From Clostridia bacterium (GTDB lineage: Bacteria; Bacillota; Clostridia; TANB77; CAG-508): a stretch of DNA of 64,000 nt. The notes below the pieces were generated by a model. That model did no database searches. It had not been told where the DNA came from and saw only the letters and a list, made by a program, of their open reading frames with translations. The position numbers and the translations under genes are program-made. The stretch is from positions 8,750 to 72,749 of the forward strand of contig JAFRCC010000022.1 in NCBI GenBank assembly GCA_017404545.1. The letters are read 5' to 3'. Shown one piece after another: positions 21,307 through 24,419 of this stretch (positions within the stretch are counted from its first letter, which is position 1; the number at the start of each line of letters is the position of its first letter).

Positions 21307-21762
21307 TCATGGATTACAATTCTTACATGGCTCATCCCCTTGACTAATAATCTCTTCTCTCGAATCAGAGCTGTACGCCTTATTAGACTCACTCATCTTC
21401 TTAACAAATTTACACCAAGTATGATGAAACTTATGAGAATTATTAGTATTCAAAACATAATCTCCACTACTAGAAGATGTATCTGTAGATTTTGAATTGC
21501 TAGATGAAGAGCTCTTAACCTTTCTTTGCTCTAACTCTTCTTCATACGCAGAAGCATAACTACTATAGCTACTACTCGAATATGTAGGCTCATAACTATT
21601 GGTAGTATTATTAACTTCATTACTACTTGAATCAGAAGATAAAAAAGCCGAACAAGATCCTAATAATAAAACTCCAATAAATACATATCTTATATATTTT
21701 AAACTTTTGAGTATATCCTTTTATACACATATCAAAAAAAATAAAATTGTTGTTCTTTCGTC
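21307..21762 (-). pseudogene. Degraded paralog of the Ada-Zn-domain secreted protein at 23739..24419
   Basis: By-eye minus-strand translation gives ...IGVLLLGSCSAFLSSD...S-rich...HKFHHTWCKFVKKMSESNKAYSSDSREEIISQGDEPCKNCNP*. No in-frame Met. An upstream RBS+ATG (GGAGGGAAATG) sits in another frame that stops after 12 codons at a T8 run. Confidence 0.5.
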
Positions 21763-21804
21763 AAATGCATTTCCCTCCGATTTATTATTTATACGCTCTG
21801 CCAT

Positions 21805-22632
21805 TTAATTATCCTCCACTTCAATTAACATCGAGTCATATTTGTTTATAAATTCTTCGTACCAGCTCATTTTCTTAACACTATCAGCAACATATGAGAT
21901 TTTATTTTTACATATTACTATTAACCCATTGTCAAACATTAGATGATGATTTGCACATAAACATATTCCATTATTTGTATTATCTCGTCCATTATCCCTT
22001 ACTGCAATAATATGTGCAGCTTGAAGTAACTTTTTTTCATAGCACCTACAAATTGCACATTTATATCCGAATCGCCTTAAAACTTTTTCTCGAAATTTGT
22101 AATCTCTGCTTGCTCTAGTTACTGTAATCCTTTTCCTTTTTGAATCATATTCTTCTCTTTTCAATAATTCTTTTGGAAATCCATCATCATCATTGCTAAA
22201 ATCAATTAAAGAATACAAATCATTAATATAGAATTCAAGAGCGTCACTTTTTATAAATAGCACCTTGTGGTATATATTTTTTTCGTCTACTATGTAATCG
22301 CACTTAATAATTTCATCTGATTTTAACAAAGTATTCCATGTGTACTTATTAACAGAAAACGTCTTGACTTGTTTACCTTGTTCTTTTCTATAAATATTAT
22401 TCCATATAATTGCATAATCATAGTTAGTATTTTCATTGATATAGACTATTATGTCTTCTTCAGGATATTTTTCTTTGTAGGGCGTATATTGTATTTTACT
22501 ATCGATTTCCTTAAAATCCTTTTTATTAATATACTTCTTATTTCTCTCTCCTACTCTAATTTTATTTCCATATATTCTCTCTAATCTTGATTTTAATTCT
22601 TCATAATTTCTCATATGCATGTCTCCATCCAC
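21805..22632 (-). CDS. HNH endonuclease-domain protein with an N-terminal domain of unknown function
   Basis: C-terminal HNH motif CAICRC...LQAAHIIAVRDNG...GICLCANHHLMFDNG. Confidence 0.65.
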   Translation of the reverse strand: MDGDMHMRNYEELKSRLERIYGNKIRVGERNKKYINKKDFKEIDSKIQYTPYKEKYPEEDIIVYINENTNYDYAIIWNNIYRKEQGKQVKTFSVNKYTWNTLLKSDEIIKCDYIVDEKNIYHKVLFIKSDALEFYINDLYSLIDFSNDDDGFPKELLKREEYDSKRKRITVTRASRDYKFREKVLRRFGYKCAICRCYEKKLLQAAHIIAVRDNGRDNTNNGICLCANHHLMFDNGLIVICKNKISYVADSVKKMSWYEEFINKYDSMLIEVEDN

Positions 22633-22656
22633 TATTACATTTTTATAAAATTAATG

Positions 22657-23691
22657 TTAAAAATTTTCCATTGCATATTTTTTGTAGCTTTCAATATAAG
22701 TGTTTTCTATCTTTTTTTCTTTATCAAATTTTGCTTTATCAACTTCTCTCTTTCTAATTTTTTTAATTTCATCATCATCATTACTATTATATATGTGTCT
22801 ATATGCATGTTCTACAATTATTTTTTTAATAAAGATACTAAACTCTTCATTAAACTGTACTTTTTTTCCGGATCCAACCTGAGTGTATATAATTTTATTT
22901 GGAGAAATTGGAAAAATAATATTAACACCTTTTTGATTTATTCCACCATTGAAATTGTATTCATCTTTACTACAATATTGTAAACGTATTACTGGGTCAT
23001 CGCTTGTCGGAATACTAATATTATCGGAAATATCTATAACCTGCCATTTATGTCTATGTAGCACGTTTAATATTTTTTTAACTTCATTGTCATTTAGCAT
23101 GTATAAGTATAGTCCTTTACCCATTGTCGCTTCAACTTTTAATATTTTCTTTTCGTTGTCATAATCTTCAATATGTCCCTCTAATGGCATTTTAAATTTT
23201 TCTACATTCTTATCTAATCTTCTTTTTTCTTTATTAAGCTTTTTTATATTTATGTTTTCATCAGATAATTTATTAATTATCTGGTTGAGTTCATTCGGCA
23301 TAACATGTGCTAAAACATTTTTAGAAGTTTTCAGTATTTCTAAAGCACGTGCCTCTGTTCTAATTATCTGTATTCCAATAAAGTCAATCAATTTATTCCA
23401 ATCTTCGGCATTAAGCTTATCTCCACTAATCGCTTTAGTAAGTGGCTCTTTGGCTGGAGTTTCATATCTTTCATTGAAAATCTTTTCAAGATAATCTTCC
23501 TCATTAGCATTTTCAATATTTGTATAAAAATCTCTTCGAAATGCAATTCCTTTAGCTGTCCTATTTTTCCATTCAGAGCAATTTCTATTTGGAACAAGTA
23601 AATCATATACATGAATTTCATTATTATTGTCTTCCCAAGCTTTAAGATACATCTGTGGTACTAAATGATTATCTCTACTGATATTATTCAT
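22657..23691 (-). CDS. DUF4238-family protein (single-gene anti-phage candidate, Rst_DUF4238-like)
   Basis: N-terminal DNHLVPQMYLKAW matches the DUF4238 signature as recalled (HhVPqfYL). Confidence 0.5.
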   Translation of the reverse strand: MNNISRDNHLVPQMYLKAWEDNNNEIHVYDLLVPNRNCSEWKNRTAKGIAFRRDFYTNIENANEEDYLEKIFNERYETPAKEPLTKAISGDKLNAEDWNKLIDFIGIQIIRTEARALEILKTSKNVLAHVMPNELNQIINKLSDENINIKKLNKEKRRLDKNVEKFKMPLEGHIEDYDNEKKILKVEATMGKGLYLYMLNDNEVKKILNVLHRHKWQVIDISDNISIPTSDDPVIRLQYCSKDEYNFNGGINQKGVNIIFPISPNKIIYTQVGSGKKVQFNEEFSIFIKKIIVEHAYRHIYNSNDDDEIKKIRKREVDKAKFDKEKKIENTYIESYKKYAMENF

Positions 23692-23738
23692 ATAAATTTG
23701 CCCCCTTCTACTACACTTTAAATCCTAAGAATTATTTA

Positions 23739-24419
23739 TCATGGATTACACTTTTGACATGGTGAATACCCCTGGCTAATAATCTCATCTCTTGACTCAG
23801 AGCTATATCTCTTATTCTTATCTTTCATCTTACTTACAGAACTGCATCCAGAATAATGAAACTTCTTTGTATTCGTATTTAATACATATCCTCCACTATA
23901 AAAGCTAGATGAACTACTAGACGTGCTCTTTGATGAAGAACTCGTACTACTAGAAGATGCGCTCTTGCTACTATAACTAGAATTAGAATCATCTCCATAA
24001 GCAGATGCATAACTACTACTTGAACTAGAAGAATCAGATTTATATGAAGAGCTCTTACTTGTATTACTATTGCTCTTCGTCTCAGTAGTATTAAAAACTA
24101 CATTACTAGTCTCAGTTTTATTTTCCACTTTATTCTCTACTTTATTTTCAACCACATTTGTAGCTGTATTATTAACAACATTATTGGTATATGAATTAGT
24201 AGTATCTGTATTGTTATATGAATAATTACTATATGAAGACTCATATCTATTAGTTGTATTATTAACACTATTTCCTGTATCAGAAGATAAAAAAGCTGAA
24301 CAAGATCCAAATAAAAGTAAACCCATAATAACAGAAACAACAATAGCAAAAGTATTTCTATTAGAATTACTACCATGTATATTATTCTTCTTTTGCCCCA
24401 TATAAATCATTCCTTTCAA
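23739..24419 (-). CDS. Secreted or membrane-anchored Ser/Thr/Asn-rich protein with a C-terminal Ada-type zinc-binding domain
   Basis: N-terminal TM/signal segment FAIVVSVIMGLLLFGSCSAF, then a long S/T/N low-complexity region. C-terminus KFHYSGCSSVSKMKDKNKRYSSESRDEIISQGYSPCQKCNP resembles the Ada N-terminal metal-binding domain (C...C...GFRPCKRCQP). Confidence 0.55.
   Translation of the reverse strand: MKGMIYMGQKKNNIHGSNSNRNTFAIVVSVIMGLLLFGSCSAFLSSDTGNSVNNTTNRYESSYSNYSYNNTDTTNSYTNNVVNNTATNVVENKVENKVENKTETSNVVFNTTETKSNSNTSKSSSYKSDSSSSSSSYASAYGDDSNSSYSSKSASSSSTSSSSKSTSSSSSSFYSGGYVLNTNTKKFHYSGCSSVSKMKDKNKRYSSESRDEIISQGYSPCQKCNP

Follow-up and report, generated by a model that had tools for sequence, protein, structure and literature searches.

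Paralogous genes for predicted stalked surface proteins ending in an Ada-like domain, within a defence island of a Clostridia bacterium

Two gene copies and their products

The window analysed here (the whole stretch of 64,000 nucleotides from an uncultured low-GC Clostridia bacterium) contains a chromosomal island that adjoins a polysaccharide locus. On its reverse strand lie two open reading frames that a preliminary description had singled out as paralogs encoding secreted, Ser/Thr-rich proteins, and both were located as described. We call them copy 1 and copy 2, and lipoprotein genes for the predicted lipobox that they share. The UMP kinase of this bacterium shares a 90%-identity cluster with the enzyme of Clostridium sp. 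CAG:492. The parts of both copies and the surrounding features are listed in Table 1.

Table 1. Coordinates of the two lipoprotein genes and of neighbouring features in the window.
Feature	Position	Strand	Basis
Copy 1, intact gene, predicted 220-aa surface protein	23739..24401	-	ORF list; Shine-Dalgarno; orthologs in L087/L094
Copy 1, predicted signal peptide and lipobox, MGQKKNN…VIMGLLLFGSC, Cys34	24300..24401	-	PS51257-type regular expression match
Copy 1, low-complexity Ser/Thr/Asn spacer, 137 aa, VENK repeats and poly-Ser runs	23889..24299	-	Composition
Copy 1, C-terminal ADA_N-like domain, YVLNTNTKKFHYSGC…GYSPCQKCNP; putative zinc ligands His, Cys, Cys, Cys	23742..23888	-	
Copy 2, 5'-truncated paralog, probable pseudogene	21307..21720 (stop-to-stop frame 21310-21720, stop 21307-21309)	-	Translation; no start codon; BLASTP; HMM
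Short ORF MAERINNK…LICV (21724-21804) and in-frame TAA (21721-21723)	21721..21804	-	Resembles remnant of an HNH 3' tail
Hairpin with U-rich tail, intrinsic terminator-like, immediately 3' of copy 2	21271..21300	-	Fold -17.2 kcal/mol, z -6.2
AbiP2-type defence reverse transcriptase (RT), upstream neighbour of copy 1	24435..25899	-	PADLOC AbiP2 E 5.7e-160, full-length match
DUF4238 protein gene, downstream neighbour of copy 1	22657..23691	-	Pfam E 1.4e-28
HNH_2 endonuclease gene, upstream of copy 2	21805..22632	-	Pfam E 1.2e-12; PADLOC HNH E 2.2e-15
Repeated terminator hairpin	27477..27551; also 13318-13400 and 30205-30275	-	Repeats; fold -34.1 kcal/mol, z -7.6, then U6

The frame of copy 1 (23739-24419, stop codon 23739-23741) reaches a TTG at 24419, and the likeliest start is the ATG at 24401, which is preceded 9 nt upstream by an AAAGGA Shine-Dalgarno sequence (24411-24416). 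The N-terminus matches, as a regular expression, the PROSITE PS51257 lipobox criteria, i.e., a basic n-region with K/R within the first 7 residues (here K4 and K5), a hydrophobic h-region and the lipobox cysteine at residues 15-35. The lipobox motif is kept in copy 2 and in the orthologs of two related strains, L087 and L094, which are 75-88% identical to copy 1. At its -1 position the lipobox has serine, which is rarer there than alanine or glycine, and copy 1 may therefore have a type I signal peptide or be anchored in the membrane instead of through a lipid. The spacer that follows is 34% S, 12% T and 15% N (S+T+N = 62%) and gave only noise-level matches in Pfam and NCBIfam; copy 2 has a shorter one of 64 aa, and the export signal and Ser/Thr-rich stalk claimed for both proteins were recovered. 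The protein ends in a domain of 49 aa with a net charge of +5. No record was returned by an exact-sequence look-up of copy 1, NCBIfam searches gave noise only for both copies, and a single-sequence search of the PDB produced a chance match to ribosomal protein L32 alone. The orthologs were recovered by a word-indexed search with the full protein; a query with the 59-aa C-terminus gave 11 matches that did not include them.

Copy 2 retains the h-region and lipobox (YVFIGVLLLGSC), the spacer and the whole domain (21310-21459). In BLASTP the two copies matched each other with 62% identity over the domain (E 7e-20) and with E 7e-8 over the signal segment, and the ungapped match reported by the repeat finder corresponds to 72% DNA identity over 143 nt and 75% over 83 nt. 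When the domain HMM was run on the six-frame translation of the window it matched exactly two places, copies 1 and 2 (the latter at E 9e-30). At the level of sequence their paralogy is confirmed, well past chance similarity.

The second copy had also been called degraded, with a T8 run in its 5' region. There is indeed no ATG, GTG or TTG upstream of its signal segment, but the run is not the break. A frameshift there was considered and rejected, as gaining or losing one T restores no frame into the lipoprotein. The short ORF upstream is in the same frame as copy 2, divided from it by the TAA, and can be aligned to the 3' tail of L087's HNH gene (homology between the window and L087 extends as far as 21788; the HNH protein of L087 terminates in …LNDRAYKSK). 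This ORF looks like a remnant of an HNH 3' tail and not like the beginning of copy 2, and copy 2 is therefore truncated at its 5' end. The copy 2 domain also has two non-conservative substitutions, Phe where 80% of the family have Ser and Asp where 92% have Tyr. These fit decay, and we regard copy 2 as a probable decaying duplicate.

The Ada-like domain and its family

Resemblance of the C-terminal module to the N-terminal metal-binding domain of Ada (N-Ada) had been proposed, and it holds at the profile level. PF02805 was matched by 12 of 13 homologs (best E 3.1e-6), and a profile of the family run against the PDB placed four N-Ada entries at the top (1adn, 1zgw, 1wpk, and 1u8b; E 0.005-0.014), aligned end to end. 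Single sequences do not carry the assignment, as copy 1 stays under the PF02805 gathering score of 23 bits (12.6 bits for the whole protein, 16.1 bits for the domain alone) and copy 2 has no match to this family at all. Among the close homologs, 32/79 match PF02805 at E<=1e-3, one of them (P0013) with 115 bits. The profile alignment lays FHxxxC over FCRPSC and PCxxC over PCKRC of N-Ada, which puts the putative metal ligands His/Cys/Cys/Cys, 99-100% conserved, in register with Ada Cys38, Cys42, Cys69, and Cys72, and the domain would be expected to bind zinc. An AlphaFold2 model of the domain (pLDDT 91.7) predicts the elements looked for in this fold: a small beta-sheet, short helices and a C-terminal helix with the CxxC. 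Basic residues are conserved at two positions, K18 (87%) and K/R35 (90%).

The methyl acceptor of Ada is Cys38. Since the residue aligned with it is a near-invariant His (99% of the family copies), an Ada-type methyl-acceptor role appears unlikely, and Pfam searches found neither of the HTH and methyltransferase domains of a functional Ada. This argument hinges on Cys38 as the acceptor; a recent paper names Cys69, not Cys38, for Ada (PMC12353581), and the window domain does keep the cysteine that corresponds to Cys69.

The family to which the domain belongs comprises 9,556 representatives at E<=1e-3 (clusters at 50% identity). It is mostly exported, to judge from the N-terminal hydrophobic segment predicted in 105 of the 146 top matches and the lipobox in 62 of them. 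When the 79 closest genomic copies were sorted by carrier, 46 proved to be the C-terminal tails of secreted NucA/EndA-type nucleases (Endonuclea_NS_2) and another 22 those of MBL-fold hydrolases (Lactamase_B). The link of this domain to nucleic-acid enzymes is gene fusion, not a defence-gene neighbourhood. It is also found with cell-wall-binding repeats and is recorded in 14 phage records; the two phage-borne copies inspected were nuclease fusions and not stalked stand-alone forms. ADA_N-like domains on the secreted C. difficile protein Cwp27 and on a ComEC-family protein were described in 2025 by the ECOD curators (PMC12353581). Exported proteins ending in such a domain, a combination that the first reading of the sequence had not recognised, are thus common and already published. 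What remains is modest but real: few appendages are commoner on the secreted DNases of gut Firmicutes than this Ada-fold His-Cys3 domain, and the domain occurs on a stand-alone stalked surface protein as well.

Defence genes around the two copies and in related strains

In the window, 33 nt separate the RT stop from the start of copy 1, and copy 2 lies directly 3' of the HNH gene. These short gaps favour the suggestion that the lipoprotein was twice coupled to defence-type enzymes, on which reading it would be the sensor or effector partner of the adjacent upstream enzyme, in RT-lipoprotein and HNH-lipoprotein two-gene systems. Such a zinc-domain lipoprotein would have pointed to a new kind of membrane-linked defence system, but the evidence does not bear this out. 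To begin with, the RT matches AbiP2 over its full length, which we take to be a single-gene system, and in the window an apparent +1 frameshift at an A8 run (25734-25741) breaks it in two, its N-terminus being intact in the relative L086. DUF4238 proteins have been described as a single-gene anti-phage defence (Rousset et al. preprint, 10.1101/2021.01.21.427644). The RT, DUF4238 and HNH genes have their matches among stand-alone defence families and, on the reading favoured below, are not partners of the lipoprotein. PADLOC-DB 2.0 contains no family for copy 1 at E<=0.01 and nothing for DUF4238 or DUF2806, and in PHROGs the lipoprotein matches a family of unknown function only.

Relatives of the neighbouring enzymes point in the same direction. 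A scan of viral contigs gave no relatives of the RT and one of metagenomes gave a single close one, L086, where the gene after the RT is different and unrelated to the lipoprotein. Upstream of the HNH relatives (59-67% identity) there is an LRR protein gene or unrelated or unannotated ORFs, without DUF4238, and no lipoprotein gene was seen within the short flanks covered.

The related strains show how variable the surroundings are. In L087-L090 the order is terminator, lipoprotein, DUF4238, and HNH, without the RT and without a second copy downstream of the HNH gene; the lipoprotein-DUF4238-HNH block is syntenic with the window at 87.7% identity, a point in favour of partnership. In L094 a polysaccharide locus is followed by a terminator, lipoprotein A, SocA/Panacea genes, a second terminator, lipoprotein B, and a Gp49/HTH pair, and RT, DUF4238 and HNH genes are all absent. 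A repeated terminator hairpin stands immediately upstream of each lipoprotein gene in the related strains; in the window three genes (26603-27448, 25968-26570, and the RT) lie between the hairpin at 27477..27551 and copy 1. A consensus terminator scan of 20000-27600 returned none, missing this hairpin because its loop has 9 nt; it was folding that revealed it. The L087 protein's C-terminal domain is 90.7% identical to that of copy 2 and the remainder matches copy 1, a mosaic that suggests recombination between lipoprotein copies. In all three strain contexts seen (3/3; those contigs that share one metagenome series are possibly not independent) the lipoprotein genes are inside a defence island, at the head of a block that varies in its defence or toxin-antitoxin genes. 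The comparison clearly illustrates how one gene stays constant while defence genes around it are inserted and exchanged.

At other loci of the family, Pfam counts over 144 flanking genes gave no RT or HNH near the copies, a phmmer search of ±10 kb around 80 loci with every island protein as query found nothing, and the neighbours of stand-alone family members are mostly housekeeping genes. Conserved co-occurrence of RT or HNH with the lipoprotein across lineages was not found, an outcome that the preliminary description had itself named as refuting the coupling, and the RT is not part of a lipoprotein unit. The location in defence islands may still leave room for a defence-related role.

Possible roles and comparison with known systems

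We favour, with a probability of about 0.6, a stalked and probably lipid-anchored lipoprotein that displays an ADA_N-like domain binding extracellular DNA, with the defence genes as neighbours and not as partners. On this reading the window carries members of a small paralogous gene family whose products would be exported and probably anchored through a lipid at Cys34. The His-Cys3 zinc domain would be held out on a disordered Ser/Thr/Asn stalk of ~130 residues and would act as an extracellular nucleic-acid binder contacting the DNA backbone, as suggested by its usual place at the C-terminus of secreted nucleases and MBL-fold hydrolases. Having no catalytic partner, the stand-alone form would display the module at or beyond the cell wall and hold extracellular DNA there, and RT, DUF4238 and HNH genes would have been inserted around the lipoprotein genes in strain-dependent combinations. 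Copy 1 is then most likely a surface-displayed, non-catalytic DNA-binding module, its lipidation, display and binding all being predictions from sequence. If so, it bears on DNA uptake, scavenging of extracellular DNA and attachment to the biofilm matrix in anaerobes. The case for DNA binding is drawn from the kinship of the domain with N-Ada and, as guilt by association, from its fusion to nucleases; the charge pattern would also suit another polyanion, e.g., teichoic acid.

An unlikely alternative is that the domain binds a polyanion or envelope component other than nucleic acid (teichoic acid, polysaccharide), in which case the role would be in the envelope or capsule and the meaningful context would be the gene's position at the border of the polysaccharide locus. 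The domain is basic, co-occurs with cell-wall-binding repeats (Cwp27 included), and in L094 the lipoprotein gene comes directly after the last gene of the polysaccharide locus, to which the island of the window is adjacent as well. However, a terminator separates the lipoprotein gene from the polysaccharide operon, the main fusion partners are nucleases, with DNA or RNA as substrate, and Cwp27 and the choline-binding fusions are already attached to the wall through other repeats.

It also seems improbable that the protein is, like Ltp of Streptococcus phage TP-J34, a superinfection-exclusion factor on the outer face of the membrane, whose DNA-binding domain would capture or obstruct phage DNA on entry, or the machinery that injects it. 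The lipid anchor of Ltp, its serine-rich spacer and its active repeat domain (PMC3952083) form an architecture that is paralleled here; 5/5 copies seen in the species group lie in a defence island at the head of defence or toxin-antitoxin blocks, and the mosaic paralogs and the phage records could be read in the same way. Against this, the Ada-like fold appears unlike that of the Ltp repeat domain, one copy is decaying, PADLOC is blank, PHROGs offers its uncharacterised family only, the phage-borne copies inspected are nuclease fusions, and stand-alone homologs elsewhere sit mostly amid housekeeping genes. Likewise doubtful is the idea that stalked ADA_N-like lipoproteins are conserved head genes of exchangeable defence modules in this lineage. 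They could serve for exclusion, by binding DNA at the surface, or their repeated sequence, with that of the terminator, could supply the homology for cassette swapping by recombination; their presence in the island would then not be accidental. Partnership with the upstream enzymes is by far the least credible reading and is largely refuted, the RT being missing from L087 and L094, copy 2 being missing after the HNH gene in L087-L090, and both window pairs being damaged, the one in its RT and the other in the start of its lipoprotein gene.

Among known systems, Ltp shares with the stalked lipoprotein of the favoured reading a three-part design of lipid anchor, serine-rich spacer and small domain beyond the membrane. 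This is analogy only; the window domain, with its Ada-like fold, appears unrelated to that of Ltp, and its gene is in a chromosomal island, not in the lysogeny module of a prophage. In E. coli Ada the zinc domain (1adn, 1eyf, 1u8b; PF02805) has Cys38 as its first ligand, where the window domain has His, and it is N-terminal and cytoplasmic, whereas ours is C-terminal, predicted to be extracellular and followed by no HTH or methyltransferase domains. The ADA_N-like domains that occur on secreted proteins of Gram-positive bacteria (ECOD X-group; Cwp27, ComEC/Rec2-family; PMC12353581) have in common with it the small Ada-related fold, the C-terminal position and carriers with a signal peptide, a likeness that for Cwp27 and Q187P0 rests on family relationship and not on direct alignment with the window proteins; unlike those carriers, the window protein combines a lipoprotein-type signal with a long Ser/Thr/Asn stalk and has no other globular domain. 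Further counterparts are the secreted or lipid-anchored NucA/EndA-type nucleases and MBL-fold hydrolases, which carry the same C-terminal domain at 55-69% identity, preceded by a low-complexity linker, and likewise have a signal or lipobox, and from which the window proteins differ in having no catalytic domain of any kind.

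The defence island

Nearly all genes of the window lie on the minus strand, in DNA with a G+C content of 26-35% (mostly near 28%). Three of its housekeeping proteins are identical to those of an uncultured "Clostridia bacterium" MAG. The repeat array and the ORFs at 7360-13127 look like a type II CRISPR-Cas locus, judging by ORF size and by the array. Between this locus and a polysaccharide biosynthesis locus (from 27.5 kb onward) there is a 14-kb stretch (about 13.3-27.5 kb) of defence-type genes: a KAP-type NTPase, HipA-like PDC-M03A genes, DUF2806, HNH_2, DUF4238, an AbiP2-type RT and a PD-Lambda-3_B-like gene. 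Both copies of the lipoprotein gene are found inside this island.

Main features of the window
Feature	Position	Strand	Remarks
Repeat array	6472-7302		regular repeats, 66-nt period, at least 12 units
Smaller ORFs beside cas9-like ORF	7360-8043, 8350-9222		
cas9-like ORF	9207-13127		1,306 aa; assigned from ORF size and adjoining array
~75-nt repeat	13318-13400, 27477-27551, 30205-30275		16-bp palindromic arms TGTCGAAACATGCAAT…ATTGCATGTTTCGACA
Lipoprotein copy 2	21310-21720	-	hydrophobic segment and lipobox, shorter spacer, full domain
Lipoprotein copy 1	23739-24419	-	220 aa from ATG 24401
AbiP2-type RT	24435-25899	-	PADLOC E 5.7e-160, model matched full length

Copies of a ~75-nt repeat flank the defence stretch on both sides. 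We consider it an intrinsic terminator, since the minus strand folds into a strong hairpin that runs into U6-7 (folding energy -23 to -34 kcal/mol, z -5.6 to -7.6). In related strains it is located directly upstream of each lipoprotein gene, and these repeats may be module boundaries or recombination points. A second short intergenic motif (…TCGTATGACATAATTCGACA…) occurs four times between island genes (3627-3697, 6309-6370, 15525-15566 and 20164-20234). We also detected a skipping-rope RNA (Rfam RF02924, 57.5 bits, E 3.8e-11) at 5282-5381 on the minus strand, just downstream of an ORF pair (5399-6307) whose region is 79% identical to a stretch of the related-strain contig L087 with its SocA/Panacea gene; a second copy of 97 nt (322-418) is 87% identical and scores below the gathering threshold.

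Two lipoprotein genes and gene decay

The most likely start of copy 1 is the ATG given in the table, which a good Shine-Dalgarno sequence precedes by 9 nt. Its product begins with a basic n-region, followed by a hydrophobic segment and the lipobox-like LLFGSC (Cys34). Next comes a 137-aa spacer in which Ser, Thr and Asn make up 62% of the residues, and a basic 49-aa domain (YVLNTNTKKFHYSGC…GYSPCQKCNP) forms the C-terminus. By BLASTP (E 7e-20 and 7e-8) and by DNA identity (72-75% in both conserved ends), copies 1 and 2 are clearly paralogs, as a preliminary description had proposed, with no further copies within the window. Copy 2 has no usable start codon, and Ser is replaced by Phe and Tyr by Asp at strongly conserved positions. 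Upstream, in the same frame and ended by TAA, is a short ORF (MAERINNK…); its counterpart in a related strain is the 3' end of the HNH gene. We read copy 2 as a decaying, 5'-truncated duplicate. A T8 run was considered as the cause of its defect and rejected.

The lipoprotein of L087 is a mosaic, in which signal and spacer match copy 1 and the C-terminal domain matches copy 2. The DNA of this domain (L087:4717-4874) is 90.7% identical to copy 2 (21309-21469), whereas the same region of copy 2 is only 72% identical to copy 1 (23743-23900). This points to recombination or gene conversion between the paralogs.

The reading frame of the RT is broken: 60 codons at its start (ORF 25717-25899) and the other 430 lie in different frames. 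With one A fewer in an A8 run (25734-25741), the result is a continuous RT that matches the intact N-terminus in L086, the contig with the closest RT relative. The frameshift is either a real inactivating or phase-variable event or a homopolymer sequencing error. Further gene decay in the island is seen in the HipA-like (PDC-M03A) gene pair, duplicated with ~86% identity (2644-3420 and 18698-19690): one copy (2654-3320) is shortened, and the kinase part of the other (18708-19981) is split into overlapping ORFs (19060-19779 and 19712-19981).

Surroundings of the lipoprotein genes

The same description had coupled the lipoproteins to the RT and HNH defence enzymes, a claim that four lines of evidence speak against. 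Among the recurrent Pfam families in 144 genes flanking 79 genomic copies of the domain there was no RT or HNH, and phmmer searches with every island protein of the window found no relatives within ±10 kb of those loci. True stand-alone members have mostly housekeeping neighbours, and two further contexts show an MBL gene in split form and a ParE/RelB pair. The closest RT relative found, and the only close one (64% identity), has an unrelated gene downstream, while HNH relatives (59-67% identity) have other genes upstream and the domain was not seen in their short flanks.

The most telling line is the comparison of strains, represented by metagenomic contigs, most from one study series. In those labelled L087-L090, a terminator hairpin is followed by the lipoprotein, DUF4238 and HNH, without RT or second lipoprotein copy at the locus, and homology to the window spans exactly 24432 to 21788 (87.7% identity). 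Another (L094) has, after a polysaccharide locus and a terminator hairpin, a lipoprotein A of 210 aa (75% protein identity), a small ORF, SocA/Panacea genes and others. Beyond these, another terminator hairpin precedes a lipoprotein B of 200 aa, which is followed by a Gp49/HTH pair; this locus has no RT, DUF4238 or HNH. In the window, by comparison, an insertion of three genes (the one resembling PD-Lambda-3_B, a 200-aa ORF and the RT) separates copy 1 from the terminator at 27477-27551. It follows from these surroundings that the lipoprotein stays constant and the defence genes vary; the lipoprotein genes are fixed points in a defence island whose contents shuffle. The enzymes encoded nearby come from families that act on their own, and a DUF4238 protein by itself gave E. 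coli protection against T7 (10.1101/2021.01.21.427644).

An exported Ada-like domain

Taken alone, the window domain matches Pfam Ada_Zn_binding weakly (12.6-16.1 bits, cut-off 23). The resemblance is real, because 12 of 13 aligned family members match PF02805 (best E 3.1e-6), the best PDB matches of the family profile are four N-Ada sequences (E 0.005-0.014) and the AlphaFold2 model of the domain is confident (pLDDT 91.7). FHxxxC aligns over FCRPSC of Ada, and GYxPCxxCxP over its GFRPCKRCQP. The Ada-like nature first suggested for the module is confirmed at the profile and fold level.

At E<=1e-3 an exhaustive HMMER search for the family gave 9,556 cluster representatives, and 4,796 of them pass E<=1e-10. 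An N-terminal hydrophobic segment is present in 105 of the 146 best matches and a lipobox within the first 45 residues in 62, and many members share the design of the window protein, i.e., signal, low-complexity linker and domain (for example P0068, with a poly-Ser linker). Among the 79 closest copies in reference genomes, the domain forms the C-terminal tail of Endonuclea_NS_2 (NucA/EndA-type) nucleases (46) or the tail of MBL-fold (Lactamase_B) proteins (22), the remainder being stand-alone or combined with surface domains (Ig, LRR or PKD). The domain is also seen fused to choline-binding repeats, and carriers in plasmid records are named "DNA/RNA non-specific endonuclease" or "MBL fold metallo-hydrolase". 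The two phage-borne copies inspected are lipoprotein nucleases. These NucA-type proteins ending in an ADA_N-like domain (L084:4515-5147, PV036428.1; L085:4158-5147, PV036446.1) are annotated as hypothetical proteins in gut phages of the proposed order Heliusvirales, the second with a lipoprotein signal and lipobox (…LILSGC). Pei et al. described such domains at the C-termini of the secreted C. difficile Cwp27 and of a ComEC-family protein (PMC12353581). The architecture, at first taken for an unfamiliar combination, is already known and common.

Since the domain is basic, retains the Ada fold and metal site, and has as usual partners secreted enzymes cutting DNA or RNA, the best-supported reading is that of a putative extracellular nucleic-acid-binding module. 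In the window protein the lipid anchor would tether this module to the membrane and the flexible stalk of ~130 residues would project it, being long enough in principle to span the Gram-positive wall. That the domain binds a wall polymer and not DNA seems unlikely. We also doubt that the lipoprotein would be an Ltp-like superinfection-exclusion factor: it has the same three-part design as Ltp (PMC3952083) and each of the five copies in the species group stands first in a block of defence or toxin-antitoxin genes, but the family as a whole shows no association with defence and the main partners of the domain are nucleases. A two-gene system, as originally imagined, is highly improbable. What remains of interest is what this exported and very widespread domain may bind.

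In structural work on N-Ada, Cys38 is the methyl acceptor of Ada; if that holds, Ada-like methyl transfer is unlikely here. This case is not watertight, because the ECOD paper (PMC12353581) names Cys69, the equivalent of which is kept in the window family. Whereas the Ada N-terminal domain has a Cys4 site, that of the window family is His-Cys3. Of 360 domain copies, 99% have His at the Ada Cys38 position, and conservation of the three Cys is 99-100%.
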